A stretch of DNA of 39,237 nt from Candidatus Omnitrophota bacterium (GCA_003644445.1 QNCG01000002.1:1-39237), one strand, 5' to 3'. Positions 8,514-38,016 are shown, numbered from the stretch's first letter. Made by a program: numbers and translations. The notes: generated by a model from the letters alone, not told the origin.

Positions 8514-8539
8514 AAAATTAGAATAAGTATACGCGAGAA

Positions 8540-10244: not shown

Positions 10245-10246
10245 AA

Positions 10247-17667: not shown

Positions 17668-17890
17668 CTTCTTTCAAAACCTCTTTTAATTCCTCAATTA
17701 ACTTAAGAGTTTCTTGGGCAGATTTTTTTTCTACTTTACCAATAGCAAAACCAGCATGGACTAAAACATAATCTCCTATTCTTGCCTTTTCTATCAAGCC
17801 TAAAGAGACTTCCCTTAGCACTCCTCCAAAATCTACTAAGGCTTTATCCTTCTCTATCTTCTTAATTTTTCCGGGAACTGCCAAACACAT
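17657..17890 (-). CDS. hypC: Hydrogenase maturation chaperone HypC
   Basis: It has the N-terminal MCLAVPGKI with the essential Cys2, and is 77 aa long. Confidence 0.93.
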   Translation of the reverse strand: MCLAVPGKIKKIEKDKALVDFGGVLREVSLGLIEKARIGDYVLVHAGFAIGKVEKKSAQETLKLIEELKEVLKEDEK

Positions 17891-17919
17891 TTGATTAATC
17901 TGGTTGTACTCTCTTCTAT

Positions 17920-18990: not shown

Positions 18991-18993
18991 ATT

Positions 18994-19032
18994 AGTTCTT
19001 TTGTTCAATTGTACTTTTGTTCTTTTGTTTAG
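18994..19032. repeat. 24-nt-period repeat, core TGTTCTTTTGTT (plus strand), between hypA and hypF
   Basis: AGTTCTTTTGTTCAA (18994..19008) and TGTTCTTTTGTTTAG (19018..19032). The 15-nt string TTTTGTTCTTTTGTT (19015..19029) also occurs at 23508..23522. Confidence 0.6.
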
Positions 19033-19037
19033 TAGTT

Positions 19038-19379
19038 CTATTGTGAACTGATTTCTATACTCTCTATGTAGACTTTGTCTCCCTTTACTATCTGAATATC
19101 TTTTAAACCACAGAAGGGACAATTTAGAGAATTTACTTCAGTTAAATCTTTCTTACAAGATTTACACCTTAGTAAAATATCTTCATCTAAAAGTTCTAAT
19201 TCTAAAAAATTAAGTCCATTCTCAGGAAAAATATGGTCTAAAAAACTATGCCTTAAAAATTCTTTATCTATACCGGAAGCTTTGCCTACCCTTATCTTAA
19301 TCTTTCTCAGTTTGGAGAGATTATCTACCTTATTCTTAATAACCTCCCATAAATCCTTAGCCAGAGTTAACTCGTGCAT
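19038..19379 (-). CDS. hypA: Hydrogenase nickel-insertion protein HypA
   Basis: It starts MHELTLA and has the zinc site CKSC...CPFC, in 113 aa. Confidence 0.9.
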   Translation of the reverse strand: MHELTLAKDLWEVIKNKVDNLSKLRKIKIRVGKASGIDKEFLRHSFLDHIFPENGLNFLELELLDEDILLRCKSCKKDLTEVNSLNCPFCGLKDIQIVKGDKVYIESIEISSQ

Positions 19380-19405
19380 CTTAGATTGTAATTAGATTAC
19401 AAAAA

Positions 19406-20008
19406 TTAAGAAGTAAAAACTGCTTCTCTCCTACAAACAGGACAAAGAATTCTGAAACGGTCTGAACGCAAAATCTCCGGGGTAGATTTGGGGAGAGTCT
19501 CAGCTATAAAAATTTCTTTCTGCTTAAAAGAAATCAAACTGGTATTAGAAACATAGAGAGGTCCCAGCTTATTAATAACCCACCGGTAATGGTCAATACA
19601 GGCCACAGGCTTACCACAAACTTCACAACAAACTAACGCCTTCTCAATCTCTTGAAATAAACTCTTTCTTTCTTCAGTTGCCGATAAATCGTACTCATTA
19701 GATAATACTATACCTTCAGAAGTCAAACAATTAAGCTGACACTGTCCACACTCAATACAGATATCCCATCTTATCTTAAGAACCCTCTTAAACCCAGAAT
19801 CTGTCTTAATATCCTTAAAGCTCAAAGCTCCGGTAGGGCAAACATTTACACAGGCACTACACCCTACACACTTATCTTTATCAAAATAGGGCTTACCCCG
19901 AAAAGATTTAAAAGGTATATGGGGCCTAAAAGGGAACTTAGTAGTATAAGGTTTAGTTATTAAAGCCTTTACCGCAGTAATTATTTCTCTTATCTTAGGT
20001 AATCTCAT
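19406..20008 (-). CDS. NuoI/MbhN/HycF-like 2x[4Fe-4S] subunit with an extra C-terminal Cys-rich tail
   Basis: It has CVGCSACVNVCP and CIECGQCQLNC, plus CCEVCGKPVAC and CPVCRRE. It is the last gene of the hydrogenase/Mrp operon. Confidence 0.75.
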   Translation of the reverse strand: MRLPKIREIITAVKALITKPYTTKFPFRPHIPFKSFRGKPYFDKDKCVGCSACVNVCPTGALSFKDIKTDSGFKRVLKIRWDICIECGQCQLNCLTSEGIVLSNEYDLSATEERKSLFQEIEKALVCCEVCGKPVACIDHYRWVINKLGPLYVSNTSLISFKQKEIFIAETLPKSTPEILRSDRFRILCPVCRREAVFTS

Positions 20009-20022
20009 TAGGTTATGCTCCC

Positions 20023-20340
20023 TTAATTTTGGTAGTCGTCACAAACACTTCCCTCCCACAATTTTACCCCTGCTTTATGGGAACTCCGGGCTAAAGCATG
20101 GGCTGAAACTGGGGAAGTAAGGAGTAAAAATACTATACAGAGTAAAGCCTTTATCCCTCCAGGAGAAAAACCTAAAATTAAAAATACTCCAAATAAGAGA
20201 CTGCAGGTGCCAAAAGTAACACACTTAGTAGCTGCCTGAAGCCTATTATAAACATCAGGAAGTCTAACTAAACCTAAACACCCAAAAAGGTCAAAAACCA
20301 GCCCTATTCCAATAAATACAATACCTATTACCTCAAGCAT
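20023..20340 (-). CDS. mnhG: Mrp/Mnh antiporter subunit G-like (MbhC-like)
   Basis: GLVRLPDVYNRLQAATK is the MnhG signature. It has three TM segments. Confidence 0.85.
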   Translation of the reverse strand: MLEVIGIVFIGIGLVFDLFGCLGLVRLPDVYNRLQAATKCVTFGTCSLLFGVFLILGFSPGGIKALLCIVFLLLTSPVSAHALARSSHKAGVKLWEGSVCDDYQN

Positions 20341-20348
20341 ACCTTCTC

Positions 20349-20723
20349 CTACTCATCAAAATGTTTCCCTTCTAAAAATTTTGCCAAAGCTAATGTAGAG
20401 ATAAAACTCTGCAAAGCCCAGGCAATCCCAATATCCATATACCAGTTTCTCCTGGTAGATATACTTAAAACTGCACAGAAACCTATAATTAAAATACCTA
20501 ACATATCAATACTAACAATCCTGTCAGAAGCAGTAGAGCCTCTTAAAACCCTATACAAACACAAAAAAGCACTTAAGAGCAAAATCCCTACAGCTCTTCG
20601 GAAAACCCCTAACAAGGGAAATTGAGGATAAATAAGAGAAGGCAAAGGGCTAAAAAGAATTATCCCTAAGATTATGGAGATTACAATTAGGCCTAAAATA
20701 TAAGTAAGTAACTTCTTCTTCAT
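20349..20723 (-). CDS. mnhF: Mrp/Mnh antiporter subunit F-like (MbhB-like)
   Basis: RVLRGSTASDRIVSIDMLG resembles the MrpF motif. It is a small polytopic protein in the expected operon position. Confidence 0.75.
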   Translation of the reverse strand: MKKKLLTYILGLIVISIILGIILFSPLPSLIYPQFPLLGVFRRAVGILLLSAFLCLYRVLRGSTASDRIVSIDMLGILIIGFCAVLSISTRRNWYMDIGIAWALQSFISTLALAKFLEGKHFDE

Positions 20724-21214
20724 TCAAAAATCTTGGTTAGTATTTTCTCAAATCTTCTTACTATTATCTGGGTTGCCTTTTGGACATCCTTACTCTTAAC
20801 ATCTATCCAATGCACATACAAAAGCCCATTTTCTTTATCTACATCTACAGTCAAAGTCCCGGGAGTTAAAGTAATAGAGTTAGCCAAAAAAGTTAAACCC
20901 GTCTCAGATTTTAAAGAAGTAGTAACCTTTACTATCCCCGGCTTTATTGGTAGTGAAGGCCTGATTACTCTTAAAGCTACATCCACATTTGCCTTAAAAC
21001 ATTCCCAGATAAATACTGGGATATAAATTAGAAACCAAAAATACCTTTGAAGATGTTTAAAAATGTGCGGTCTCTTAGTAAATAAATCTCCGGTCATAAA
21101 AGAAACAAATAAAGAAACTAACCCTCCTACTAAAAGATTTTCCCAACTTAGAGAAAAAGTAAGTAATAACCAGACTAAAAAAGCCAAGATAAAAAGGATA
21201 AATCTACCGGACAT
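20720..21214 (-). CDS. mnhE: Mrp/Mnh antiporter subunit E-like (MbhA-like)
   Basis: ANVDVALRVIRPSLPIKPGIV is the MnhE-type motif. It overlaps the downstream gene by 4 nt. Confidence 0.8.
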   Translation of the reverse strand: MSGRFILFILAFLVWLLLTFSLSWENLLVGGLVSLFVSFMTGDLFTKRPHIFKHLQRYFWFLIYIPVFIWECFKANVDVALRVIRPSLPIKPGIVKVTTSLKSETGLTFLANSITLTPGTLTVDVDKENGLLYVHWIDVKSKDVQKATQIIVRRFEKILTKIFE

Positions 21215-22706
21215 TTTCTACAAAGTCATTTATAGTTGAATAATTCTTTGCTTCTAACAAAGTTTTCTGAGCAGGCCCTAAGAAAAAATTAGAAAACTTA
21301 TTTAAAAATAAAAATGAACTCAAAATACACAACAAAGAAAGACTAAGCATAGCTAATTTCATAAAAAAAGGAACTTCCTTAATTTCTCTATTTTCTGTGT
21401 GTTCTGTAGAGAAAGAGTATCTATAAACCTTCATAAAGGAAGCTAAAGTAAGAATACTTCCTACTATAGCCCAGAAAGCATAACCAAAAAAACCTGCTTT
21501 AATACAGGAAAAAATAACTATAAGTTTACTAAAAAACCCATTAAAAGGAGGAATCCCTGAAATACTTAAAGAAGCAATCAAAGTAGTTAAAGAAGTAAAA
21601 GGCATCTTACTTCTTAAACCTAAGTCTTTAATCTTAAGAAGCTGGCGGCTACCTGTAGAATATTCAACTGCTCCTGAATTTAAAAATAATAAAGACTTAA
21701 ATAGAGAATGGTTAAAAAGATGAAATAATCCGCCCAAGATACCCAAAGGCGTGCCTAAACCTATGCCCAAAATTATATAGCCAACCTGACTTATAGAATG
21801 ATAGGCTAAAAGCCTCTTAAAATCCCATTGCCCTATAGCTAAAACTACGCCCACCATTATGGATACTGTCCCTAAAAACATCAAAGGAAGAGAAAATAAT
21901 TCCTTAAGCCCTAAAACATTGTAAATCACCCTCACTAAACTATAAATACCTAAAGACTTTATAAGAAGCCCTGATAAACTCGCAGATATAGGGGCAGGGG
22001 CTGAAGGATGAGCATCAGGAAGCCAGGCGTGAAAAGGAACTATACTTGCCTTTAAACCAAATCCCATAAAAAACAATATACCCGCAAACACTACTACCTT
22101 ATTTAAAGAACCTCCCAGAGTTTTAGCTATATCAGCCATATTCAAAGTAGAAGTAAAAGAGTAAATTATCCCAATCCCTAAAAGAATAAATAGAGAAGCC
22201 ACACTACTCATAATAGCATACTTAAAAGAGGCCTCTAGTTCTTCCTTTTCCGTTCCAAAAGCTACCAGAGCATAACTTGCTACTGAGGCAAGCTCTAAAA
22301 AGACAAAGAGATTAAATAAATCTCCGGTAGCTACTACTCCATTCATTCCGGCTAACATAAGAAGAAAGAGGGTGTAGAATTTTTCTTTAGAAGTATATTT
22401 CTCCATATAATTTATAGAATATAAGGAGATGAAGAAACTAACCAGGCAAACTGTAAGTAATAAAAGACTGCTTAACCCGTCTAAAACTAAAGTTATCCCC
22501 AAAGGAGGCCTCCAGCCTCCCACCTTATAGATTAAAACACCGTATTTATTAACTAAAAATAAAGAGAGGAAAGAAATAACTGATAAAGAGAAGGTAATTA
22601 ATAAAGAAAGAATATCGGAAACCTTAGTATTCTTCCTTACAAAGAGAGAATTCAAAAATGCTCCCAATAAAGGCAAAACTATAAATAGAGGGATTAACTG
22701 ACTCAT
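21204..22706 (-). CDS. mnhD: Antiporter-like subunit MrpD/NuoN-M family (500 aa)
   Basis: It is a ~14-TM proton-conducting transporter with HAWLPDAHPSAPAPISA and FHLFNHSLFKSLLFL motifs. Confidence 0.88.
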   Translation of the reverse strand: MSQLIPLFIVLPLLGAFLNSLFVRKNTKVSDILSLLITFSLSVISFLSLFLVNKYGVLIYKVGGWRPPLGITLVLDGLSSLLLLTVCLVSFFISLYSINYMEKYTSKEKFYTLFLLMLAGMNGVVATGDLFNLFVFLELASVASYALVAFGTEKEELEASFKYAIMSSVASLFILLGIGIIYSFTSTLNMADIAKTLGGSLNKVVVFAGILFFMGFGLKASIVPFHAWLPDAHPSAPAPISASLSGLLIKSLGIYSLVRVIYNVLGLKELFSLPLMFLGTVSIMVGVVLAIGQWDFKRLLAYHSISQVGYIILGIGLGTPLGILGGLFHLFNHSLFKSLLFLNSGAVEYSTGSRQLLKIKDLGLRSKMPFTSLTTLIASLSISGIPPFNGFFSKLIVIFSCIKAGFFGYAFWAIVGSILTLASFMKVYRYSFSTEHTENREIKEVPFFMKLAMLSLSLLCILSSFLFLNKFSNFFLGPAQKTLLEAKNYSTINDFVENVR

Positions 22707-22708
22707 TT

Positions 22709-23047
22709 TTAGCCTTTTAGCTGATTTATCTTGGTAATATCAAAAGTCTTATATTTTTCATAAATTCTTATAGCTAAACCTACCAACAAAGCTGTAACCG
22801 CTAAACCTATAACTATAGAAGTTAAAACCAAGGCCTGAGGCAAGGGGTCAACCATATTTTTAACCTCTTGCCCAGGTGAATAAATGGGGGCTCTCCCATC
22901 TTTTCTATAAGCAATAAGTATCAAAAATAAGTTAACTGCATACTCACAAATAATAGTGCCAATAATTATCTTAATTAAATTCCTTTTTCTTAAGATAGCG
23001 TATAAACCCACTACAAAAAGTATAAAGCAAAGAAAATATACTCTCAT
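22709..23047 (-). CDS. mnhC: MrpC/NuoK-like subunit
   Basis: The 112-aa, 3-TM protein sits between the MrpB- and MrpD-like genes. Confidence 0.85.
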   Translation of the reverse strand: MRVYFLCFILFVVGLYAILRKRNLIKIIIGTIICEYAVNLFLILIAYRKDGRAPIYSPGQEVKNMVDPLPQALVLTSIVIGLAVTALLVGLAIRIYEKYKTFDITKINQLKG

Positions 23048-23553
23048 TGTTTATCCTTATCTTTTATTACTCTTAAGAGAACTAAAAACACAAATATAGC
23101 AAATAATCCACTGCTCACCTTTATCCCAATAGCAATATTATACAAGGGGATATTCCCTGCAGAAAAAAGATTAAAGGGAGCACCTTTATCTACAAAGAAG
23201 TCTAAAAAGAAATAGCCAGCTAAAAAACCTAAAATAGCAATCCCCAAAAATAGAGTAGCCCCCAACCCTTCAAAAAAAGTTATGTATTCTGAAGAAAATC
23301 TCTTTAATACCTCTTCTTTACCAAAAGCTAACATAAGGTGGATAAAAGATAAAGCAATGATTACTCCTCCAGCAAAACCTCCACCCGGAGAGATATGGCC
23401 GTGTAAAACAATATAAATACCGTAAAGGAGAATCAATCCTACGGTTAAACGGGTTATAGTCTTGACAATCAGGCTCATCCCTTTAGATTCTGTTTGTTCT
23501 AAAGTATTTTTGTTCTTTTGTTCTGAAGTATTATTGTTTTTCTGTTCTAACAT
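23044..23553 (-). CDS. mnhB: MrpB/MnhB-domain subunit (MbhF-like); start uncertain
   Basis: The conserved core starts at MSLIVKTITRL...LHGHISPGGGFAGG (ATG 23478). An upstream in-frame ATG at 23553 has an AGGAGG 13 nt away and would add a repetitive EQKN(N/K)NT tail. The GTG at 23622 has no SD. Confidence 0.7.
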   Translation of the reverse strand: MLEQKNNNTSEQKNKNTLEQTESKGMSLIVKTITRLTVGLILLYGIYIVLHGHISPGGGFAGGVIIALSFIHLMLAFGKEEVLKRFSSEYITFFEGLGATLFLGIAILGFLAGYFFLDFFVDKGAPFNLFSAGNIPLYNIAIGIKVSSGLFAIFVFLVLLRVIKDKDKQ

Positions 23554-23556
23554 TTT
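23496..23556. repeat. Tandem 24-nt repeat, about 2.5 copies
   Basis: GTTCTAAAGTATTTTTGTTCTTTT / GTTCTGAAGTATTATTGTTTTTCT / GTTCTAACATTTT on the plus strand. Units 1 and 2 are 20/24 identical. Confidence 0.75.
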
Positions 23557-23703
23557 GCGCTCTTTTCCTCCTAATGGGTTATGCCATATATCACCCCATT
23601 CAACTTCCTTGCTTCCTGCCACACTGTAAGGTCTTCAAACTTCTCTATCTTCATCAACTAAACAAAAACAACAGCCGAACTAAAGAACTAATGAACTTTA
23701 CTT

Positions 23704-24219
23704 CTACTTTCTCCCAATTTTCCTCACTACAGCTAAGACTCCAATAACTGCAGTAAATAAAACTGTGGCTTCTCCTAAAGTATCGTAAGCTCTGAAATTA
23801 AGGATAATTGAGGTTACTAAATTCGTAGCCTTAGTGAGATTTTTTCCCTGGTTAAGATAAAATTCAGATACCCTCATTAAAGGCTGACCAAACGAAGGAA
23901 GTTCTTTTAAGATAAAATAACTTAAAAACAAGAATGCTCCCAAAAAAACAAAAGTTACAGTAGTATTAAAATACCACCTTCCCGAAGTAGAAAAAGGAAG
24001 GTCTCTCCTTAGAGTTGCCCGGATTAAGATTATTAAACACAAGATTTCTACTACCAACTGGGTAATGGCTAAATCAGGAGCCTTCAAAAACAAGAAAGCT
24101 AAAGAAAGCCCTAAACCTGAAATTCCTACTGCCACCACTGAGGAAAGCATATCCTTGGTTTCAATAGCTATAATTGCTCCTAAAATCATAAAGATTATTA
24201 AAAATTCTAACTCTAACAT
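23704..24219 (-). CDS. MbhD/MbhE-like (MrpA C-terminal-like) membrane subunit
   Basis: PDLAITQLVVE is a DUF4040/MbhD-type motif. NFRAYDTLGEATVLF is a MnhB-related motif. Both lie in one 171-aa polytopic protein. Confidence 0.75.
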   Translation of the reverse strand: MLELEFLIIFMILGAIIAIETKDMLSSVVAVGISGLGLSLAFLFLKAPDLAITQLVVEILCLIILIRATLRRDLPFSTSGRWYFNTTVTFVFLGAFLFLSYFILKELPSFGQPLMRVSEFYLNQGKNLTKATNLVTSIILNFRAYDTLGEATVLFTAVIGVLAVVRKIGRK

Positions 24220-24221
24220 AG

Positions 24222-25844
24222 CTAAAACCTAAAAAAGGCTAAAAATAAGCCTAAAACTCCTAAAAGACACCAGACCAAATATGTAGGTAAAACCCCGTTA
24301 TGAAGGTACTTTAAAAAATTAGCAAAAGAGAAAGTTATTTTCTTAAGAACTTGGTAAATATCAAAAAACCCCTGGCAAGCTTTATCATAGACAGGAGCTA
24401 AAAATCTCATCTTCCTAAAAGAAGTATAAAAGTCAGAGACTAAAGGCTGAGCTTCCTCTTCCTCTCCACCCACAAAAAGATTATCTTGGCGGAATTTCTT
24501 CTTTAAGGAAAAAATAAAGAATATTAACAAACCTAAGACTAAGCCAAAGATAATTAAGAGAGTAGCTAGGCTGGCTTCCCACAAACCATAAATTTTTATT
24601 TCTCCTAAATAAGGTTTAAGAAAGATATTTAAAACAGTCTCTCTAAAAAAGATACCAAAAATTACACAAAAACCGGCTAATACTAAAACAGGAAACAACA
24701 AGAAGAAATTGCCTTCTTTCACCTTTTTCTTAGATTTTCCTAAAAATACTCCTCCTAAAAATTTCAAAAAGGAAGCCAAAGTCAAACCTGAGCCTACCAG
24801 AGCAAATACTAAGCCTAAACTACCCACAATCTTTAAACTCCCTGAAGAATTCCCCACTAAATCAATAAGGGCTTGGTAAACAATCCACTTAGAGACAAAA
24901 CCATTTAAAGGAGGAATACCTGAAATAGACAAAGCAGAAATTAACCCTCCTAAAAAAGTTAAGGGCATAAATTTAGCTAAACCTCCTAAATCTTCTAATT
25001 CTGAAGAACCTGTTTTCTCTTCCACATTCCCCGCAGTTAAAAAGAGACAGGCTTTATATAAAGCATTATTAAGCATGTGGAATAATCCTCCAGCCAAACC
25101 TAAAATACTTCCACAGCCTAAGCCTAAGACCATATACCCTACCTGAGAGATAGCATGAAAACCTAATAATCTTCTTATATTATGCTGAATTAAAGCCATC
25201 ATTACTGCTGAAATTACTGTAAACCCTCCTAAGAAAATAAGGATAACTTTAGCTAAGCCATTTAAGATAAAGACATCTTTAATAACCCGAGCTAAAAGGT
25301 AAATCCCTAAGAGTTTATCTATTGAAGCCGGCAAATAAGCTACCACTGGTAAAGGCGCATGCTGAGAAACATCAGGAATCCAGGTATGAAAAGGCATAAG
25401 CCCAGCTTTAGCAAAACAACCTATCCCAATAAAGAGAAAAGAGAAAAGAGAAAGTAGAGAATTAATCTCTAATTTATTCCCAGAAAAATCAATACTCCCG
25501 GAAAGATAAGTCAAAATTAAAAAACCTAAAAGCAAAAAGGCATCACTTCCTCCCACAATAATAAAGGTCTTCTTAGCGGTATCAGCCTGTTGAGAAGTTC
25601 TATCTAAATTTATAAGAGAAAAAAGGCTCAAGCCTAAAAACCCCCAGAAGATTAAGATTAAAACAAAATTAGAAGAAAATACCACTCCTAAAGAAGCTAA
25701 GAAAGTTAGGATAAACCAGAAGTAATAATAAAATCTCCTTCTCTTTATAAAAGCTAATGAATAAATGAATATTAAGACAGTAAATAAAACTACAAACACT
25801 CCAATAAATTTAGAAAGCCCATCAAAGATAACTAAACTCCTCAT
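24222..25844 (-). CDS. Antiporter-like subunit MbhH/NuoL family (540 aa)
   Basis: It is a polytopic proton-conducting transporter with FHTWIPDVSQHAPLPVVA and FHMLNNALYKACLFL. It overlaps the large-subunit gene by 4 nt. Confidence 0.85.
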   Translation of the reverse strand: MRSLVIFDGLSKFIGVFVVLFTVLIFIYSLAFIKRRRFYYYFWFILTFLASLGVVFSSNFVLILIFWGFLGLSLFSLINLDRTSQQADTAKKTFIIVGGSDAFLLLGFLILTYLSGSIDFSGNKLEINSLLSLFSFLFIGIGCFAKAGLMPFHTWIPDVSQHAPLPVVAYLPASIDKLLGIYLLARVIKDVFILNGLAKVILIFLGGFTVISAVMMALIQHNIRRLLGFHAISQVGYMVLGLGCGSILGLAGGLFHMLNNALYKACLFLTAGNVEEKTGSSELEDLGGLAKFMPLTFLGGLISALSISGIPPLNGFVSKWIVYQALIDLVGNSSGSLKIVGSLGLVFALVGSGLTLASFLKFLGGVFLGKSKKKVKEGNFFLLFPVLVLAGFCVIFGIFFRETVLNIFLKPYLGEIKIYGLWEASLATLLIIFGLVLGLLIFFIFSLKKKFRQDNLFVGGEEEEAQPLVSDFYTSFRKMRFLAPVYDKACQGFFDIYQVLKKITFSFANFLKYLHNGVLPTYLVWCLLGVLGLFLAFFRF

Positions 25845-27025
25845 TTTAACTCTGCTTCTAACTTTTTAGTTTTTTCCTGAGAAAGCTTAATTAAATCTTG
25901 GCCAGTAAATATCTTCTCTCTATTTTTATTATAGGCTACTGCTCTCTCGGTACAACAATAACAGGGGTCTACTGCAGCTAAAGTAATAGCGGCATCAGAA
26001 ATTGAATAACCTTTAACTGCAAACTTATTAGAAGCAACATTCATATAAGAAGGAGCTCTTACTTTATGGCGAACCGGCTGATTTGTCCCATCACTTCTTA
26101 TATAATGAAAAACCTCTCCCCTTGGAGCCTCAGCTCTGCCTATGCCTTCTCCCGGAGGTATTTCTCTCACCTCTACCTCTATTGGACCAGGCTTAAGCCT
26201 ATCTACACACTGCTCAATTATCCGACAGGATTCGTACATCTCTAAAACCCTTACTAAAATTTTATCGTAAACATCACCCTTCTCAGTAGTAATCACTTGC
26301 CAGTCTATCTCTTCATAAAGACAGTAAGGCTCGTCTCTTCTTACATCTATTTTTAAACCTGAAGCCCGGGCAGTAGGACCAGCCACTCCGTAAGAGATTG
26401 CTTCTTGCTTAGTTAATACTCCTACCCCTTTAGTTCTTTTGTGAATTACCGGGTCATCTCTTACAGCCTTCTTAAATAAATCTAATTGAGGATAGAGTTC
26501 TTTAATAGTCTTTTTAATAACTGAGTAATCTTCTTCTTTTATATCTCTTCTTACCCCTCCTATCTTCATCATTGCGTAGTGGTTTCTATTGCCGGTAATG
26601 AGTTCAAATAAATCTAAGACCGGTTCTCTAGCTTTCCAGGCCCACATCCAGACAGTATTATAACCAATAAAATGTCCGGCTAAGCCTAACCATAAAAGAT
26701 GAGAATGAATTCTCTCTAATTCCGCTATAATCATTCTTATGAAGCTGGCTCGAGGAGGTGGTTTTATCCCTAATAAATCTTCTACTGCTAAAACATAAGC
26801 TAAAGGATGGGAAGTAGAACAAATCCCGCAGATTCTCTCTACTAAGAAAGTAACTTGGTCCCAGTGTTTAGTTTCTGAAAGCTTTTCAATCCCCCGATGG
26901 TTATAACCAATCTCTATATCTACATCAATAACTTTTTCTCCTTCTACAATGAGCCTAAAAAATTCCGGTTCTTCCTGTAAAGGGTGGTAAGGCCCAATTG
27001 GGATAATTTTTCTTTCTTTACTCAT
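25841..27025 (-). CDS. Group-4 [NiFe]-hydrogenase catalytic large subunit (NuoD/MbhL/HycE-like)
   Basis: The N-terminal Ni-binding motif is RICGICSTSH and the C-terminal motif is DPCYCCTER, followed by a 34-aa tail. GPYHPLQEEPEFF...GYNHRGIEK is typical of group 4. Confidence 0.93.
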   Translation of the reverse strand: MSKERKIIPIGPYHPLQEEPEFFRLIVEGEKVIDVDIEIGYNHRGIEKLSETKHWDQVTFLVERICGICSTSHPLAYVLAVEDLLGIKPPPRASFIRMIIAELERIHSHLLWLGLAGHFIGYNTVWMWAWKAREPVLDLFELITGNRNHYAMMKIGGVRRDIKEEDYSVIKKTIKELYPQLDLFKKAVRDDPVIHKRTKGVGVLTKQEAISYGVAGPTARASGLKIDVRRDEPYCLYEEIDWQVITTEKGDVYDKILVRVLEMYESCRIIEQCVDRLKPGPIEVEVREIPPGEGIGRAEAPRGEVFHYIRSDGTNQPVRHKVRAPSYMNVASNKFAVKGYSISDAAITLAAVDPCYCCTERAVAYNKNREKIFTGQDLIKLSQEKTKKLEAELK

Positions 27026-27473
27026 CTTGAGGATAACCTTTCTTTAAAGGGTAATCTTTTCTCAAAGGGTACTCTTCTTCAGGCCAATCTTTATCTAATA
27101 AGAGATGCCTAAGGTCGGGGTGACCTTTAAAATTTACACCCAACATCTCCTTAATCTCCCTTTCTATCCATTCTGTAGAATTAAAAAGAGAAACTAAGGA
27201 ATCTATCTCAGGATTAGCTTTGTCTTCAATAAATACTCTTAAATTAAAGAGCTCGCCAGTTTGGTCTTTCCCAAAATGATATATCAACTCAAAATTTTTC
27301 TCATTATCAATGCCAGTAACTGTAGAAAGGCGCATACCTAAATCCTTGTGGAGAATCTTAGCTACCTCTTTTAAATCTTTCTTATCAATAGTAATATAAA
27401 TTCTTCGAGGGTTCTTTTCAAACCACTCTTTAATCTTTCCTTCTAATTTTTTCTTAACTTCTTCTTTAATCAT
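27018..27473 (-). CDS. NuoC/MbhK-like subunit
   Basis: The pattern is that of the 30-kDa subunit family (EWIEREIKEMLGVNFKGHPDLRHLLL). Confidence 0.88.
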   Translation of the reverse strand: MIKEEVKKKLEGKIKEWFEKNPRRIYITIDKKDLKEVAKILHKDLGMRLSTVTGIDNEKNFELIYHFGKDQTGELFNLRVFIEDKANPEIDSLVSLFNSTEWIEREIKEMLGVNFKGHPDLRHLLLDKDWPEEEYPLRKDYPLKKGYPQDE

Positions 27474-27889
27474 CTGTTTACCTTTTTAATTAACTTCACA
27501 ATTCCGGAAATTATTGCCTCAGGTTTAGGAGGACAACCCGGTATATACAAATCCACAGGGATAATCTCATCCAAAGGAGCTTGCATTGAATAACTGGGCT
27601 TAAACATTTGCTGAGAACAAGTACAACTCCCTACCGCTACCACAAAACAGGGTTTTGGTGCCTGGGTATAAAGCTTTTTAAGCCTCTTTAAAGACTTCTT
27701 ATTCATTGCTCCAGTTATAAGTAAGACATCAGCGTGTCTAATACTGCCGATTAACTGTATACCAAACCTTTCTACATCATAACGGGGAGTTAATAAGTCT
27801 AAAATCTCAATATCACAATTATTACAGGAGCCTGCAGATATATGAAAAACCCACAAAGATTTAGTAAGTATTTTCTCTTTTAACCCCAT
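27470..27889 (-). CDS. Hydrogenase small subunit, NuoB/MbhJ-like
   Basis: The Cys ligands for the proximal [4Fe-4S] are present: GSCNNCDIE, GSCTCS, IPGCPPKPE. Confidence 0.92.
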   Translation of the reverse strand: MGLKEKILTKSLWVFHISAGSCNNCDIEILDLLTPRYDVERFGIQLIGSIRHADVLLITGAMNKKSLKRLKKLYTQAPKPCFVVAVGSCTCSQQMFKPSYSMQAPLDEIIPVDLYIPGCPPKPEAIISGIVKLIKKVNR

Positions 27890-28797
27890 TAAAAACCAAG
27901 TATTGCTAAAATTATTGCTAATAATCCTAAAGGAAATAATAAAAACCAGAAAAACTTAACTATGTCATCAGCTCTTAACCGAGGGTTAGTATTCTTAATT
28001 ACTGAAATTAAAAGAATAATTATAAGATATTTATAAATAAGATGCCAGCCTAAATTATCAGCCCAGAAAAGTAAAATTAAAAATAAAGGTAAGATAAAAT
28101 AGAAAAGAGCCCGGGTTAATTTAAAAAATCCTAATAAAGGGCCTCCATACTCAATATAGATTCCGGCCATTATCTCTTGCTCTGCTTCAGAAACATCAAA
28201 AGGAACTAAACCCATCTTAGCCTGAAGCCAGATTAACCCCAAGATAAAAGCAATAAACCCCGAAATACTCCCTAAAAAAGGAAAAGATTTCTGCAAAGAA
28301 ATTATCCCCTCTAAACTCAAATTACCCTTAGATTTTATTAAGACTACTATTAAACTGGTAACAAAAATAAATTCATAAGAAAGCATAAGTTTTACTTCTC
28401 TGGCTGCCCCACAGCTAGCTAAAGGATTAGCTGAAGAAAATCCTCCTAAAATAGTAAATAAGGAAGGGGTAATCAACAGGTAAAATACCACCAATAAATC
28501 AGCCTGAAAAATACTTTCCTTTAAAAATAGAGCCTGAGTTATAAAGAGAATCACCAAGAGCACTGAAGAAAAGGAAATTATAGGACTAGCTATGAATAAA
28601 GGCTTAAAGGAATCTTTAGGAATGACTTGTTCTTTAAAGAATAACTTCAATATATCTATAAAATTCTGATACCAGGGAGGACCAACCCGGTATTGAAACC
28701 GGGCAGTTAACTTCCTCTCTACCCACCAGCCTAAACCTCCCCAGAAGAGAGAAAACAAAAATCCTGGAAAAATCAAGTAATTAAAAAGGAGTTTCAT
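27889..28797 (-). CDS. NuoH/MbhM/HycD-like membrane subunit
   Basis: It has eight predicted TM segments and the N-terminal motif ERKLTARFQYRVGP typical of NuoH/HycD. Confidence 0.85.
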   Translation of the reverse strand: MKLLFNYLIFPGFLFSLFWGGLGWWVERKLTARFQYRVGPPWYQNFIDILKLFFKEQVIPKDSFKPLFIASPIISFSSVLLVILFITQALFLKESIFQADLLVVFYLLITPSLFTILGGFSSANPLASCGAAREVKLMLSYEFIFVTSLIVVLIKSKGNLSLEGIISLQKSFPFLGSISGFIAFILGLIWLQAKMGLVPFDVSEAEQEIMAGIYIEYGGPLLGFFKLTRALFYFILPLFLILLFWADNLGWHLIYKYLIIILLISVIKNTNPRLRADDIVKFFWFLLFPLGLLAIILAILGF

Positions 28798-29282
28798 TTT
28801 TTCTTATAAAGAATTGTGTCATCCTTAAACCACTTCTTAGAATGAATAGCCAACTTATCAGAAACAAAGAATATCCCTTCTTCTATACTCTCTTCTTTTA
28901 TCTCTCTAATCTCTAAAGCACCGTAAGGACAGCTCTCCACGCAAGAAGGTTTACCTTTCTCTATACAGAAATCACACTTAGAATCTAAGAAACTTAAAAA
29001 ATCTACCAAAATAGTCCCGAAGGGACAAGCCAAAGAACAACTTTTACAAGAAGTACAAAGAATGTTAGACCTTCTAAGAATACCCTTCTCGTCTTTAGCT
29101 AAAGCCTGATGATAACAAGCTTTTATACAAGGAGCTTCCTCACACTGCCTACAAATCAAAGAAAAAGTAGCTAACTCTCTTAAATTAGTTATCCCATTAT
29201 TTTGAAGGTGATAAAAATAACTACATTTTACTACACATTCTTTACAGTTATCACACTTTTCTAAATCAATAAATAGCTTCAT
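28794..29282 (-). CDS. HycB/HydN-like polyferredoxin (four 4Fe-4S motifs)
   Basis: The four motifs are CDNCKECVVKC, CRQCEEAPCIKAC, CTSCKSCSLACP and CDFC...CVESCP. Confidence 0.8.
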   Translation of the reverse strand: MKLFIDLEKCDNCKECVVKCSYFYHLQNNGITNLRELATFSLICRQCEEAPCIKACYHQALAKDEKGILRRSNILCTSCKSCSLACPFGTILVDFLSFLDSKCDFCIEKGKPSCVESCPYGALEIREIKEESIEEGIFFVSDKLAIHSKKWFKDDTILYKKK

Positions 29283-29285
29283 CTC

Positions 29286-30110
29286 TTAATCCCAGATATC
29301 TTCAATATCTTTTATCTCGGAATATTTAAATACTGGCCCGTCTTTGCAGACATAAAACCGGCCTAACCTGCAATGCCCACATTTACCTAAACCACAACTC
29401 ATATTCTTCTCCATAGATAAATAGATATTTTCCTCTAAAAAGCCCGATTCTAAAAGTTTCCAGGTTGTAAACTTCATCATTATTGGAGGTCCACAGACTA
29501 CACTAACTGCCTGAGAAGAATTTAAAGGTAGATTATCTAAAAGAGTAGTAACTACTCCTACGTTTCCTTGCCAATTCTGGTCAGCCTTATCTACAGTAAG
29601 CCTTAACTCCACATTCTCAGGTTTTTTAAATTCTTCTATCTGGTATTTATAGACTATATCCTGAGGGGTTTTAGCTCCATAACAGATGATAATTTTCTTA
29701 AAATCTTCTATTCTCGAGAATAAAGCATAGATTAAAGAACGAAGAGGTGCAAGCCCTACCCCTCCTCCTACTATCAATAATTCCTTTCCTACAAAACTAT
29801 CTAAAGGATAACCTTTACCTAAAGGGCCTCTCAAACCTAGAATCTGGCCTACCTTGGCCTGATGAAAAAGAGCAGTAATTCGGCCTACCTTCATTATGGT
29901 TACTTCAAATTCTTCTTTTTTGTTGGGGTCAGATGAGGGAGTAAAGGGAGCTTCTCCTTTTCCCGGATAAGTAAGTTCTATAAATTGACCGGTAGAAAAA
30001 GAAAATTCTTCTTCAGGTTTTAAGACCAGCGTCTTAATTGTGGGGGTTTCTTCAATTATCTTAGTAATAACTGCCTGTTTAGGAGTATAGATTGAATTCA
30101 TTTTAGGCAT
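29286..30110 (-). CDS. FAD/NAD(P)-binding 2Fe-2S oxidoreductase (sulfhydrogenase gamma HydG / AsrB-like)
   Basis: It has a ferredoxin-reductase-type fold with nucleotide loop GGGVGLAPL. The C-terminal 2Fe-2S motif is CGLGKCGHCRLG...VCKDGPVF. Confidence 0.85.
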   Translation of the reverse strand: MPKMNSIYTPKQAVITKIIEETPTIKTLVLKPEEEFSFSTGQFIELTYPGKGEAPFTPSSDPNKKEEFEVTIMKVGRITALFHQAKVGQILGLRGPLGKGYPLDSFVGKELLIVGGGVGLAPLRSLIYALFSRIEDFKKIIICYGAKTPQDIVYKYQIEEFKKPENVELRLTVDKADQNWQGNVGVVTTLLDNLPLNSSQAVSVVCGPPIMMKFTTWKLLESGFLEENIYLSMEKNMSCGLGKCGHCRLGRFYVCKDGPVFKYSEIKDIEDIWD

Positions 30111-31113
30111 TAAGAGCTTTAAAGATTTCTCTTAGGTCAATCTTAGCTATACAAGAATCAATACACCTTCCGCAACCAGTGCAGGCATAAAGGTCTATTC
30201 TTTCTTTAAAAAATTCAAATTTTTTAATATAACGGTTGCGCAATCTCTGGGCCCTTAATTTCAAAGGGTTAGCTCCTCCAGCAACTCTAGCAAAATTCTT
30301 ATATTGGCAACCATCCCAGATTCTCCCTCGAAAATACTCACCTTTTCTTTCCTCATCAGAAAGTAAGAAGCAGTGGCAAGTAGGACAATTCATAATACAA
30401 GCTCCACATTCTACACAGCTTAAAGCAGTGTCTTGCCAAAGGGGGTTAGCGTGATTGTTCTTTACAAGCTGGTACAATTTCTCCTGAGGAACTAACCCTA
30501 AGGAAGAAAGGTGTTTTTCTAAGTCTTCAATAATCTTTTTTCTCTTTTCTTCTCGTCTGGCTTGTAAATCTTTTCTCTCTTCAAACAGGTCTTTATTATC
30601 CTCCCAGATTCTCTTAGCTTTTTCTGAACCTATCTCTACTAAAAAACCTCTATCAATATCAGAAAGATTAAAGTCAAAACCTTCTTGAGGATAAGGTTTT
30701 ATCTCTAAATTCAGACAGAAACACACATCTTTGAAACTTGTACAGTCCGAAGAAATTATTAAGCTGGTTTCTCTCTTTTTCTTATATTCCTCATCAACAA
30801 AATCCCCTTCTAAAAATACATAGTCCTGAATTTTTAAAGAATAAAGGTCGCAGCTTTTAAGCCCTACTATAGCAAAAGGCTTAATCTCTCTCCGGGGAAT
30901 TTTAGAATCAAAATAACCAACGACCAGAGAAGAAGAGGCAGTAAAAAATTGACGGGGACTGCTAATTAACCGGTAGGGATTAAATATAAACCCCTCTTTA
31001 AATAAAGAATAATCATAGTCTCTCTCATTAATGAATTGGGGGGTATAGACTAAGAAATCTTTACTTAATCTTTCCAAGAATCTCCTAAAATTATAATAAC
31101 TTATAAATTGCAT
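30103..31113 (-). CDS. 4Fe-4S protein (sulfhydrogenase beta HydB / AsrA-like)
   Basis: It has CVECGACIMNCPTCHC and CTGCGRCIDSC. It overlaps the gamma-like gene by 8 nt and is the first gene of the operon. Confidence 0.8.
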   Translation of the reverse strand: MQFISYYNFRRFLERLSKDFLVYTPQFINERDYDYSLFKEGFIFNPYRLISSPRQFFTASSSLVVGYFDSKIPRREIKPFAIVGLKSCDLYSLKIQDYVFLEGDFVDEEYKKKRETSLIISSDCTSFKDVCFCLNLEIKPYPQEGFDFNLSDIDRGFLVEIGSEKAKRIWEDNKDLFEERKDLQARREEKRKKIIEDLEKHLSSLGLVPQEKLYQLVKNNHANPLWQDTALSCVECGACIMNCPTCHCFLLSDEERKGEYFRGRIWDGCQYKNFARVAGGANPLKLRAQRLRNRYIKKFEFFKERIDLYACTGCGRCIDSCIAKIDLREIFKALNA

Positions 31114-31124
31114 CAGTCTTTAAA

Positions 31125-31142
31125 TTGTGAAAAAATTCACAA
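31125..31142. promoter_or_regulatory. Perfect CRP/FNR-type palindrome TTGTGAA-N4-TTCACAA (TGTGA-N6-TCACA) in the hydrogenase operon leader
   Basis: Read directly. It lies 12 nt upstream of the ATG at 31113, where an SD would be expected, and none is visible. It is downstream of the candidate promoter. Confidence 0.45.
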
Positions 31143-31184
31143 GAAAAGGAAAATAAAAAAAGAAAATATCTTTAAATTGGAAAT

Positions 31185-31212
31185 ATAATATCAATTTAAG
31201 CAAAGATGTCAA
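31185..31212 (-). promoter_or_regulatory. Candidate sigma70-type promoter of the hydrogenase operon
   Basis: The minus strand reads TTGACA (31212..31207), N16, TATTAT (31190..31185). Confidence 0.45.
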
Positions 31213-31229
31213 GAAAAACCTCTGATTAA

Positions 31230-31634
31230 CTACAGAGATATATTCATAGCCTGGTAAGGACAAGCCTTAATACATATCCCACAGGCAATACATTTATCCT
31301 GAATAAACTCTATTTGGAGGGTATGCTCATTTCTCTTTAAAGCTGAAGTTGGACACAAAGGAACACACACGCCACAATCAACGCATTTATCTCTATCCAT
31401 AATTACATCTTCACTTAAAGGTTGAATCTTTACCCCTACTGAAGAAAGATAATCCAATCCTTTTTTATAATCAGAGTCTTTGCCCTCAATTTCCAAGACT
31501 AAAACTCCTTCTTCCTTGGGGTTAACTTCGGCTTTTAGGATGTTAAATTCTAAATTAAACTCCTTAACTAATTTATAAACAATAGGTTTATCTACCAGCC
31601 GGCGGGGAAAATGCAATACAATCCTTTTCTTCAC
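31230..31634 (-). CDS. NIL-domain / 2x[4Fe-4S] ferredoxin protein (MA1822-like)
   Basis: The N-terminal NIL-type domain (PIVYKLVKEFNLEFNILKAEV) is followed by CVDCGVCVPLCP and CIACGICIKACP. It overlaps the COG1900 gene by 4 nt. Confidence 0.8.
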   Translation of the reverse strand: MKKRIVLHFPRRLVDKPIVYKLVKEFNLEFNILKAEVNPKEEGVLVLEIEGKDSDYKKGLDYLSSVGVKIQPLSEDVIMDRDKCVDCGVCVPLCPTSALKRNEHTLQIEFIQDKCIACGICIKACPYQAMNISL

Positions 31635-33462: not shown

Positions 33463-33471
33463 TCTAAAACT

Positions 33472-37007: not shown

Positions 37008-37018
37008 TTTTCTTTTGA

Positions 37019-38008: not shown

Positions 38009-38016
38009 TTTAAAAT

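Follow-up and report, generated by a model that had tools for sequence, protein, structure and literature searches.

A membrane hydrogenase supercomplex encoded by hunA–P was named Hun by Glass et al. (2021), who reported it from Atribacteria, Omnitrophica, Elusimicrobia and cultured Kosmotoga and predicted that it passes electrons from ferredoxin to H2. The same gene combination had been noticed earlier in Saganbacteria, and the Elusimicrobia version was called the 'Mbh-Mrp-oxidoreductase type'. For the Atribacteria version, which was reported to be cotranscribed, either ferredoxin or NADH was suggested as donor and/or a role in the reduction of sulfur compounds (Bird et al.). Papers based on HydDB place Omnitrophota membrane hydrogenases and HunG in group 4g, which HydDB treats as uncharacterised and as only putatively coupled to ferredoxin, and published work on Omnitrophota, Cloacimonadota and Auribacterota takes a ferredoxin-driven, H2-evolving function for granted. 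Thus, the combination analysed here, which a first-pass annotation of the locus could not place as described or undescribed, is not new, and both functional ideas of that annotation (ion-translocating H2:NAD(P)+ oxidoreductase or sulfur-compound reductase) are already in print as one-line suggestions. The objection that the large subunit might fall in a characterised subgroup known to use ferredoxin only does not apply to group 4g.

Here, we analysed a window of 39,237 nucleotides (the whole stretch of Omnitrophota DNA), with gene assignments based on Pfam, NCBIfam and PDB sequence searches. An ORF check of the window recovered sixteen tightly packed minus-strand genes running from 31113 down to 19406 in the order hunA–P; all ORFs and assignments agreed with the first-pass annotation, and each of the 16 assignments was supported by the searches. 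Neighbouring genes overlapped by 1-11 nt at the junctions A/B, C/D, D/E, E/F, F/G, G/H, J/K, L/M and M/N and were separated by 2-14 nt at B/C, H/I, K/L, N/O and O/P. The sole larger gap, located 5' of the MrpB-like hunJ and previously described as repeat-bearing, measured 81 nt when hunJ is taken to start at a GTG (23622) and ~226 nt when an ATG near 23477, probably its real start, is used instead; the stretch indeed contains an imperfect 24-nt tandem repeat. This spacer was lineage-specific, as hunI and hunJ abutted or overlapped in 60 of 60 relatives. Directly 3' of hunP, on the same strand, lies a maturation block (15621-19379) composed of hypA (19038-19379; Pfam HypA), hypF (17920-19122; C-terminal domains only, Pfam HypF_C and HypF_C_2), hypD (16615-17667; Pfam HypD) and hypE (15621-16703; Pfam AIRS/AIRS_C). 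On the basis of the hunA–P order and the CGIC…CYCC signature of the large subunit, both as in the published description, sequence comparison identifies the locus as a hun operon, predicted to encode a membrane [NiFe]-hydrogenase that has 16 subunits and belongs to the complex-I superfamily, and as a typical Omnitrophota copy.

The hydrogenase core begins with hunD (27889-28797), a NuoH/MbhM-like membrane anchor of 302 aa (Pfam NADHdh, 1e-60) whose best PDB match was Mbh 6cfw_M (2.5e-26). It is followed by hunE (27470-27889), a NuoB-like small subunit of 139 aa with the proximal [4Fe-4S] cluster (Pfam Oxidored_q6), which exceeded the cut-off of the NCBIfam NuoB subfamily model and kept its GCPP motif in 77 of 77 loci, and by hunF (27018-27473), a NuoC-like subunit of 151 aa (Pfam Complex1_30kDa, 7e-34). 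The 394-aa group-4 large subunit, hunG (25841-27025; Pfam Complex1_49kDa and NiFeSe_Hases), showed MbhL 6cfw_L as its best PDB match (8e-91) and HycE 7z0s_E as the second (1e-82). Its Ni-binding motifs were correctly read at first pass (L1, RICGICSTSH; L2, DPCYCCTER), and ~33 residues follow L2 as a C-terminal tail. Among related loci, the published Hun signature was present almost without exception (CGIC in 80/80, DPCYCC in 79/80), and the four Ni/Fe cysteines were intact in 80/80, which, together with the hypA/F/D/E genes directly downstream, suggests that Hun is a true hydrogenase. The last gene, hunP (19406-20008), encodes a 2x[4Fe-4S] subunit of 200 aa. The NuoI-like assignment made earlier holds in general, and the protein is more precisely HycF-like: the best PDB match was HycF of formate hydrogenlyase (FHL; 7z0s_F, 1.5e-19), with the alignment extending through 'CCEVCGKP' and 'CPVCRRE', whereas MbhN gave only 5.5e-13 over residues 9-63. 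HunP thus has the HycF-type C-terminal CxxC...CxxC extension, and the CxxC pair was found in 46 of 46 loci. The corresponding part of FHL HycF holds a metal ion and touches HycB.

The remaining genes encode the membrane arm: hunH (24222-25844), an MbhH/NuoL-like antiporter-type subunit of 540 aa (Pfam Proton_antipo_M, 1e-53) whose NuoL/MrpA/HyfB-type NCBIfam matches were each under cut-off; hunI (23704-24219), a fused MbhD and MbhE-like subunit of 171 aa (Pfam MbhD 9e-17, MbhE 2e-9); hunJ (23044-23622), an MnhB/MrpB-like subunit matched by Pfam MnhB over residues 52-173 only; hunK (22709-23047), an MrpC/NuoK-like subunit of 112 aa (Pfam Oxidored_q2, 2e-27); hunL (21204-22706), an MrpD-like antiporter subunit of 500 aa (Pfam Proton_antipo_M, 4e-62; NCBIfam MrpD-type, 391 bits, under cut-off); hunM (20720-21214), MrpE-like, 164 aa (Pfam MNHE, 1e-47); hunN (20349-20723), MrpF-like, 124 aa (Pfam MrpF_PhaF, 7e-17); and hunO (20023-20340), MrpG-like, 105 aa (Pfam PhaG_MnhG_YufB, 6e-26). 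Judged by these homologies, Hun is a combination of an Mbh/Mrp-type, predicted ion-translocating membrane arm with an FHL-type peripheral wire.

The first two genes had been proposed to be the flavin/pyridine-nucleotide pair of sulfhydrogenase and Asr, and our data bear this out. The 336-aa product of hunA (30103-31113; Pfam Fer4_22) is a multi-[4Fe-4S] protein resembling AsrA and the sulfhydrogenase beta subunit (NCBIfam HydB 163 bits, AsrA 117 bits, both under the equivalog cut-offs). Aligned with the SHI beta subunit (PDB 9nez_B, 1e-45), every Cys group is matched, and the Cys motifs were kept in 63/64 and 65/65 loci. The product of hunB (29286-30110), an AsrB/sulfhydrogenase gamma-like protein for FAD, NAD(P)H and [2Fe-2S], is 274 aa long (271 aa in gene calls, which start it at the second Met) and contains FAD_binding_6, NAD_binding_1 and DHODB_Fe-S_bind domains (Pfam). 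It matched the SHI gamma subunit (PDB 9nez_C, 1.5e-51), its closest solved homologue and one whose structure is available with NADPH bound, and the AF2 model (pLDDT 88) had as best fold match this NADPH-bound form (9nf0_C, TM 0.87), in agreement with the NAD(P) pocket expected in this protein. Both the GGGVG-AP loop (G115-G119, A121, P122) and the cluster cysteines C239/C244/C247/C255 were invariant in 43 homologues; among loci covering the region, the GGGxGxAP nucleotide loop occurred in 68/68 and the 2Fe-2S motif in 70/70. It should be noted that HunA and HunB scored below every NCBIfam equivalog cut-off, so their cofactor chemistry is assigned by homology. The third gene, hunC (28794-29282; Pfam Fer4_11), encodes a HycB/CooF-like polyferredoxin of 162 aa with four Cys4 groups, which matched 9mqx_E, HycB3/4 of HDCR (7qv7) and HycB of FHL (7z0s_B); the strict four-group Cys pattern was present in 51 of 71 loci.

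Relatives of the large subunit were identified in at least 598 species genomes, and we compared the loci of the best 80. The order HydB>HydG>HycB>NuoH>NuoB>NuoC>large subunit was colinear on one strand in all 56 of these loci whose upstream sequence reached 5.4 kb or more, and the complete 16-gene order was found in 38 loci. Such an arrangement is far beyond chance.

The 116-nt intergenic gap 5' of hunA contains the best sigma-70-type match in 18800-33600, a minus-strand promoter-like TTGACA-16-(TG)TATTAT (31185-31212; 11/12 consensus positions plus the extended -10 TG), just 3' of a terminator-like hairpin (31218-31239) that closes the upstream gene. The few-nt junctions, the location of the best promoter-like site and hairpin only 5' of hunA, the fact that hunA is always the first gene while its upstream neighbours differ from locus to locus, and the cotranscription reported for the Atribacteria homologue with its oxidoreductase all suggest that hunA-P form one transcription unit. 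Between the -10 element and hunA, 12 nt 5' of the start codon, lies a candidate Rex operator, the perfect palindrome TTGTGAAAAAATTCACAA (31125-31142), which was the sole zero-mismatch Rex site in the window. Rex boxes with at most two mismatches were located 27-78 nt 5' of hunA in 24 of 58 related loci, where ~0.1 would be expected from the background (7 sites in 1.02 Mb); no box was recognisable in 31-34 of the 58. A rex gene was absent from the window. Among the related loci, a Pfam-confirmed rex was the adjacent gene in eight, six of which had perfect boxes 5' of hunA; in the other two, L014 and L060, a re-scan located the boxes 5' of rex itself.

Taken together, the HunB fold and nucleotide loop, the HycF-type extension of HunP and the Rex operators favour a link to NAD(P)H, and our best model, to which we assign a probability of about 55%, is that Hun is a Rex-derepressed, ion-coupled NADH:H+ oxidoreductase. 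Transcription would start from the promoter 5' of hunA, with Rex, a sensor of NADH/NAD+, acting as repressor, so that a build-up of NADH turns the operon on. A pyridine nucleotide, NADH more probably than NADPH, would bind HunB and reduce its FAD, and electrons would then pass via the [2Fe-2S] cluster of HunB, the [4Fe-4S] clusters of HunA, the four clusters of HunC, the two of HunP and the proximal cluster of HunE to HunG, whose Ni-Fe site would reduce 2 H+ to H2. By analogy with HycB on HycF in FHL, HunABC may dock on HunP; in FHL and in Thermococcus Mfh/Mch, a formate dehydrogenase holds the position taken by HunAB in Hun. Under standard conditions, the reaction from NADH to H2 is uphill by ~18 kJ/mol (arithmetic of the first-pass annotation), and a Nernst estimate with NADH couples of -280 to -320 mV makes it feasible only at or below about 3-66 Pa H2. 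Since the reaction is uphill except at low H2 pressure, we propose that an inward flux of Na+ or H+ through the Mrp-type arm assists H2 evolution; in reverse, about one ion might be conserved per H2 oxidised.

The conventional view is that reduced ferredoxin donates to HunA/HunC as in an Mbh-type enzyme, with HunAB serving as an Fe-S wire only and H2 evolution exporting Na+/H+ for ATP synthase. We consider this unlikely. In its favour, Glass et al. predicted it explicitly, it is the HydDB default for group 4g, it is assumed in the Omnitrophota, Cloacimonadota and Auribacterota papers, its thermodynamics are straightforward, the closest solved large and NuoH-like subunits are those of the ferredoxin-dependent Mbh, and ferredoxin could still deliver electrons to surface clusters of HunA or of HunC. 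Yet it leaves unexplained why an intact FAD/NAD(P)H subunit of the FNR type, its nucleotide loop invariant, persists in every informative relative. Mbh does without such a module and takes ferredoxin at MbhN, whereas the Hun counterpart is HycF-like and carries the HycB-docking extension. In Asr and SHI, the gamma-type subunit is the pyridine-nucleotide site. This role, and the NADPH bound in the closest fold, run against the published ferredoxin argument for Hun, which rests on AsrAB accepting electrons from ferredoxin. Rex control is compatible with the ferredoxin model and is unpredicted by it. In some Firmicutes and Thermotogae, hydrogenases that depend on ferredoxin are likewise under Rex control, and the Rex box therefore indicates coupling to NADH status rather than NADH as the substrate. 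The sugar fermentations that yield both NADH and reduced ferredoxin would also suit electron confurcation, in which both donors meet at one flavin to form H2, as in HydABC but at the membrane, and the fold of HunB is of the PyrK/NfnA family, which also occurs in bifurcating Nfn. The flavin of NfnA-type subunits is the non-bifurcating one, however, Pfam searches found no second flavoprotein (NfnB-, NuoF- or HdrA-like) encoded in the operon, and an ion-translocating arm would make confurcation unnecessary; we regard this possibility as very improbable.

The proposed wire, with its NAD(P) site, could also run in the direction first proposed, as an ion-pumping H2:NAD(P)+ oxidoreductase that supplies NAD(P)H, for example, in acetogenic or lithotrophic growth. 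The 94 mV difference (~18 kJ/mol, by the earlier arithmetic) would pay for roughly one ion per H2, group-4 enzymes such as Ech work in both directions physiologically, and many Omnitrophota with a 4g membrane hydrogenase are, according to published work, predicted acetogens with Wood-Ljungdahl genes. H2 uptake with ion export is thus possible, but it is not the better-supported direction, as the Rex operator fits H2 evolution, and published models have the Hun-type hydrogenase dispose of excess reductant. Under Rex, an NADH-producing enzyme would be switched on just when NADH is in excess. Derepression in Rex regulons at high NADH/NAD+ usually opposes such an excess, and we judge uptake as the main role to be improbable. 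Finally, the homology of HunAB to the SHI beta/gamma and AsrAB subunits, and the mention of sulfur-compound reduction by Bird et al., might suggest that HunAB use electrons from H2 or ferredoxin to reduce polysulfide, S0 or sulfite, in the manner of Mbs/Mbx or as a 'sulfhydrogenase' side activity. Against this, Pfam searches detected neither AsrC nor a sirohaem subunit in the operon or the window. Mbs/Mbx have lost the Ni/Fe cysteines, which Hun keeps in all 80 loci with hyp genes attached, and the reduction of S0 by SHI counts as non-physiological, so that we consider a sulfur-reducing role highly unlikely.

The conserved Rex operator fits induction of hun when NADH builds up, that is, NADH oxidation with H2 evolution. 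The presence of HunB in every relative and the conserved Rex site are new here and would tie Hun to the NADH pool of the cell, which departs from the published view of Hun as simply ferredoxin-driven.

The window has a G+C content of about 35%, and almost all of its genes lie on the minus strand. ORF listing recovered 16 ORFs running from 31113 down to 19406 on that strand, and all 16 subunit assignments were backed by Pfam, NCBIfam and PDB sequence searches, confirming the tightly coupled minus-strand genes and subunit identities proposed in the first-pass annotation. In gene order, these are hunA, an Fe-S protein resembling AsrA and the sulfhydrogenase β subunit; hunB, which resembles AsrB and the sulfhydrogenase γ subunit and contains FAD-, NAD- and 2Fe-2S-binding domains; hunC, a HycB-like protein with four Cys4 groups; hunD, hunE and hunF, for NuoH-, NuoB- and NuoC-like subunits; hunG, the large subunit with its RICGICSTSH and DPCYCCTER motifs; hunH, an MbhH-like antiporter subunit; hunI, a fused MbhD/MbhE subunit; hunJ to hunO, homologs of MrpB, C, D, E, F and G; and finally hunP, a NuoI-like protein. 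Adjacent genes either share 1-11 nt or have 2-14 nt between them, with the junction before the MrpB-like gene as the sole exception (81 nt to a GTG start, or ∼226 nt to the ATG at which the Pfam MnhB match begins). A consensus scan within the operon found no convincing internal promoter or terminator that would split off the first three genes: the numbers of promoter-like sites (44, against 38 ± 6 expected) and terminator-like sites (12, against 14 ± 3 expected) were close to chance, and the hairpins within the coding sequence were only weak ones of 5 bp.

Several features of the locus and its surroundings should also be recorded. The spacer of ∼225 nt between hunI and the conserved part of hunJ (23478-23703, minus strand) carries an imperfect 24-nt tandem repeat at about 23490-23560 (units GAACAGAAAAACAATAATACTTCA / GAACAAAAGAACAAAAATACTTTA and so on), and the hunJ ORF, if read from the GTG at 23622, acquires a 48-residue low-complexity N-terminus. 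Since the two genes abut or overlap in all 60 related loci compared, this spacer, by which the window copy differs from its relatives, is a lineage-specific insertion. The hunG product continues for ∼33 residues after DPCYCCTER (25841-25942, minus strand). Such a C-terminal tail of the large subunit is normally cut off by a HycI-type maturation protease, and no gene for such a protease was found within the window. Directly 3' of hunP, on the same strand, are hypA, hypF, hypD and hypE, in this order. The hypF gene (17920-19122, minus strand), beside hypA, encodes the Kae1-like C-terminal domains only (Pfam HypF_C and HypF_C_2); HypF is either split or truncated, because its acylphosphatase, zinc-finger and YrdC-like parts are not encoded within the window. 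The listed hypF ORF overlaps the end of hypA, and its true start is probably the Met near 18990. Directly 5' of the hun promoter (31230-32830, minus strand) lies a homocysteine sulfur-incorporation pair, consisting of HcyBio/DUF39 (PF01837) and a NIL-domain 2x[4Fe-4S] ferredoxin; a NIL-ferredoxin gene also adjoins hunA upstream in six related loci. Two separate type IV pilus/type II secretion-like clusters (4567-11947 and 34057-38029, minus strand), containing secretins, PilM/N/O, a T2SSE ATPase, a T2SSF platform protein and a PilZ protein, flank the hydrogenase region.

Whether this combination of modules had been described before was left open in the first-pass annotation. It had already been published: Glass et al. 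(2021; bioRxiv 10.1101/536078) named a 16-subunit complex Hun (hunA-P) and reported it from Atribacteria, Firmicutes, Omnitrophica, Elusimicrobia, Bacteroidetes and the cultured Kosmotoga. In their lettering, HunEFGP form the hydrogenase module and HunIJKLMNO the Mrp-like module; HunG was assigned to HydDB group 4g, yet was distant from other 4g sequences and had unusual CGIC...CYCC motifs. They predicted that ferredoxin delivers electrons to HunABC, and mentioned neither Rex, nor NAD(P)H or NADH as donor, nor FAD. Novelty of the combination is likewise ruled out by two further reports. In Saganbacteria, Matheus Carnevali et al. (2019) described an 'enigmatic' group-4 hydrogenase of the Mrp-Mbh type next to genes resembling asrA, asrB and cooF, with the nearest relatives in Omnitrophica and Zixibacteria, and Méheust et al. 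(2020) recognized an 'Mbh-Mrp-oxidoreductase type' in Elusimicrobia, stating that the function of the oxidoreductase was unknown. The Atribacteria version is cotranscribed with the adjoining oxidoreductase (Bird et al., 2019). Papers on Omnitrophota treat the enzyme as a 4g Mbh for redox balance, and HydDB-based papers place both the membrane hydrogenases of Omnitrophota and HunG in group 4g. In the literature searched, which included follow-ups on Hun and the biochemistry of Atribacter and Kosmotoga, no biochemical study of Hun was found. Of the two functional ideas of the first-pass annotation, an NAD(P)H link and sulfur reduction, the former is reasonable; both had also appeared in print as brief remarks.

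The window locus matches Hun in its 16-gene order, the AsrAB-like HunAB pair without AsrC, the HunC Fe-S protein, the HunEFGP hydrogenase module, the Mrp-like module and the CGIC...CYCC motifs. HunA and HunB match AsrA, AsrB, HydB and HydG, and no sirohaem or AsrC-type protein is encoded within the window. Some Hun variants carry a molybdopterin gene, which the window copy lacks. As it shows no structural difference from Hun, and as its large subunit has exactly the published CGIC...CYCC motifs, shared by 79-80 of 80 relatives, the locus is a hun operon and an ordinary Omnitrophota member of this already named family, of which thousands of members have been sequenced.

Over 120 database sequences are related to hunG at ⩾69% identity, and those with names are nearly all Candidatus Omnitrophota. 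The close homologs of HunA, HunB and HunG all came from uncultured genomes and had generic names, with no cultured carrier among them. A scan using one genome per species identified at least 598 species genomes with a relative of the large subunit, and all window proteins were mapped onto the best 80 of these loci (63-75% identity to hunG), which were mostly from Omnitrophota, with some labelled Elusimicrobiota/Endomicrobia, Caldiserica, Nitrospirota, FCPU426 and other MAG taxa. In every locus with 5.4 kb or more of sequence upstream of the large-subunit gene (56/56), hunABC and the hydrogenase core were colinear on one strand; thus, the input module travels with the core. The complete 16-gene order was present in 38 of the best 80 loci. 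Three loci (L067, L077 and L078) were without the Mrp block (hunI-O), and kept hunABC, the core, one antiporter-like subunit and hunP. In many of the other loci, a further 0.6 or 2.2 kb that the window does not have lies between hunG and hunH. The genes upstream of hunA in 54 loci were variable (YqeY, PfkB kinase, Rex, NIL-ferredoxin and pilus/secreted proteins) and spaced ∼90-200 nt away; the unit therefore consistently begins with the AsrA-like gene. In one Nitrospirota MAG (L059, 3151-6978), 3.8 kb of unrelated genes for predicted secreted/membrane proteins separated hunB from hunC. This insertion may be real or an assembly artifact, and by eye it did not resemble the molybdopterin gene of some Hun variants. 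A formate dehydrogenase partner like that of Saganbacteria was rejected, as the neighbors in the 54 loci were variable housekeeping genes and the L059 insertion was unrelated; no formate or CO dehydrogenase gene was found within the window or, by Pfam or by eye, among those upstream neighbors. The large-subunit motifs were almost invariant (CGIC in 80/80 loci, DPCYCC in 79/80 and both Ni-binding CxxC pairs in 80/80). It should be noted that strict cysteine regular expressions gave under-counts for HunC (four groups, 51/71) and HunE (N-terminal CxxC, 39/76) owing to spacing variation, and the misses were not read as cluster loss.

The membrane-bound hydrogenase of Pyrococcus furiosus (Mbh) has 14 subunits, is without HunABC and receives ferredoxin electrons at MbhN. 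Among solved structures, those of the large subunit (8e-91) and the NuoH-like subunit (2.5e-26) of this group 4d enzyme (PDB 6cfw) are nearest to Hun, and both systems have MbhH, MbhD/E and Mrp-type membrane subunits and intact Ni ligands. A Ni-binding large subunit and an Mrp-type arm, as in Mbh, are both present in the window, whereas the lack of an input module and the MbhN-type terminal subunit of Mbh are not shared: Hun has three extra input subunits, and its MbhN equivalent is HycF-like with a HycB-docking extension. HunP matched HycF of the Escherichia coli formate hydrogenlyase (FHL) at 1.5e-19, against 5.5e-13 and the N-terminal part only for MbhN, and the alignment with HycF spans the HycF-specific C-terminal CxxC...CxxC quartet, which was found in 46 of 46 loci. 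In the structure of FHL (group 4a; PDB 7z0s), a metal ion is bound by the HycF extension, which is in contact with HycB, and HycB and HycF conduct electrons from the input enzyme to the hydrogenase. The same wiring of an input enzyme through a HycB-type four-cluster protein and a HycF-type protein is predicted for Hun, and the group 4b Mrp-linked formate/CO complexes of Thermococcus follow the same overall plan (oxidoreductase, Fe-S protein, Mbh and Mrp). At the window locus, however, formate or CO dehydrogenase is absent and the input is an FAD/NAD(P)H and Fe-S pair. By analogy, the most economical reading would be an FHL-type wire through HunC, HunP, HunE and HunG on an Mbh/Mrp-type arm, in which HunAB takes the place of formate dehydrogenase.

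The closest counterparts of this pair are the β and γ subunits of the soluble sulfhydrogenase I of P. furiosus (SHI; group 3b; PDB 9nez/9nf0), to which HunA (1e-45) and HunB (1.5e-51) are similar, with the FAD, NAD(P)H, 2Fe-2S and 4Fe-4S motifs conserved. All cysteine groups of SHI β are retained in HunA. HunB aligned with SHI γ over 254 residues, with the GGGVGLAP loop and the C-x4-C-x2-C...C 2Fe-2S site in register; these residues were invariant in 43 homologs, and the nucleotide loop and the 2Fe-2S motif were found in 68/68 and 70/70 related loci, respectively. An AlphaFold2 model of HunB, built on this alignment (pLDDT 88.2, pTM 0.87), dipped only at the cofactor-dependent cluster loop, and its best structural match was the NADPH-bound SHI γ (9nf0_C, TM 0.87), followed by PyrK, cytochrome b5 reductases, NqrF and NfnA-type subunits. 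In the nucleotide domain, the second strand is followed by a loop with the sequence YGA(K/R)TPxD, nearer to GARTKD of Thermotoga NfnA than to NTARYGKD of SHI γ, a weak motif likeness that discriminates poorly between NADH and NADPH. SHI is cytosolic and its β/γ pair feeds a group-3 α/δ hydrogenase, whereas in Hun the pair is joined at the operon level to a group-4 membrane hydrogenase. The HunG large subunit is of the complex-I/Mbh type, with low scores against ShyA (49 bits) and HydA (28 bits), and the NCBIfam scores of HunA and HunB were far under the HydB and HydG equivalog cut-offs.

The best σ70-type promoter match of the region (TTGACA-16-TGnTATTAT, 11/12) lies in the 116-nt gap upstream of hunA, where it directly follows a terminator-like hairpin at the end of the preceding gene. 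The hunA start codon is separated from this promoter by a predicted Rex operator, TTGTGAAAAAATTCACAA (31125-31142), which matches the Rex consensus (TTGTGAA-N4-TTCACAA) perfectly and is the only zero-mismatch Rex site within the window. Rex boxes were found within 250 nt upstream of hunA in 24 of 58 related loci, always 27-78 nt from the start (nine perfect, twelve with one mismatch and three with two), with ∼0.1 expected in these upstream windows; the remaining 1.02 Mb of these loci contained only seven sites with up to two mismatches. No rex gene is present in the 39-kb window. In eight loci, rex itself (Put_DNA-bind_N and CoA_binding domains) was the immediate upstream gene of hunA; six of these had perfect boxes before hunA and the other two had boxes before rex. 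Rex-box-like sites further upstream in L014 (position 4919) and L060 (position 3113) both lie just before the adjacent rex gene, which suggests autoregulated rex-hun units, and a perfect site was observed ∼700 nt upstream of hunA in L070 (position 238). Relative to Glass et al. (2021), these predicted operators before hunA are a new observation. As a sensor of the NADH/NAD+ ratio (cited in Méheust et al., 2020), Rex would link Hun expression to the NADH status of the cell in much of the family.

Taken together, the nucleotide site of HunB, the HycF-type HunP and the predicted Rex operators point to NAD(P)H as the electron donor, in contrast with the published ferredoxin prediction. In our preferred model, Hun would be a Rex-derepressed NADH (or NADPH):H+ oxidoreductase whose subunits assemble into one chain, with electrons passing from FAD to 2Fe-2S, HunA, HunC, HunP, HunE and the Ni-Fe site. 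Formation of H2 from NADH is uphill by ∼18 kJ/mol under standard conditions and, by a Nernst estimate with NADH couples of -280 to -320 mV, feasible only at H2 of up to ∼3-66 Pa. It is plausible that the Mrp-type arm ties this reaction to a gradient of ions, whose inward flux would aid H2 formation and whose outward flux would accompany the reverse. The genes, motifs, HunB fold, synteny and operator sites behind this model are observed, and the assembly of the subunits, the preferred nucleotide, the direction and the ion coupling are inferred. We give a probability of roughly 40% to the full reading, namely that Hun is a Rex-controlled NADH:H+ oxidoreductase coupled to a Na+/H+ gradient, which it draws on or, in reverse, builds; that together with Rnf it is a chemiosmotic substitute for confurcation; and that the published ferredoxin assignment is wrong or incomplete.

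The main rival is that published ferredoxin-driven model, which fits the Mbh-like core and requires no energy input. However, it accounts neither for the retention of a complete nucleotide-binding flavoprotein by every relative nor for the HycF-type terminal subunit. [quoted passage not shown] That annotation had offered sulfur reduction, as in Mbs/Mbx, as an alternative. Such a role is unlikely: AsrC is absent, and all Ni ligands are kept with hyp genes attached, whereas Mbs/Mbx-type large subunits are without the Ni-binding cysteine pairs found here in all 80 loci. Against the equivalog models for AsrA and AsrB, HunA and HunB scored 117 bits (TIGR02910, cut-off 323) and 226 bits (TIGR02911, cut-off 289), respectively. 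Electron confurcation by Hun itself is likewise unlikely, as the operon has no gene for a second flavoprotein.

At least 598 species-level genomes carry a Hun-type operon, and in several published Omnitrophota genomes the group 4g enzyme is the sole recognizable hydrogenase. These phyla are abundant in the subsurface and in sediments, and current reconstructions of their metabolism treat the enzyme as a ferredoxin-oxidizing proton pump. The conserved nucleotide site, the HycF-type docking subunit and the predicted Rex operators argue for testing this annotation against NADH, and because hun has been reported in cultured Kosmotoga (Glass et al., 2021), the donor question is directly testable. 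Should Hun instead use an ion gradient to connect H2 with the NADH pool, predicted ATP yields would change, as would the H2 levels that limit fermentation and syntrophy and the role inferred for Rnf. Such an enzyme would bridge a gap between two groups, the ferredoxin-dependent hydrogenases of the Mbh/FHL type and the NADH-dependent complex I. It would also be an extant relative of complex I that forms H2 and is linked to NADH, and, with Rnf, it would provide Omnitrophota, Atribacteria, Elusimicrobia and their relatives with a chemiosmotic substitute for flavin-based confurcation.
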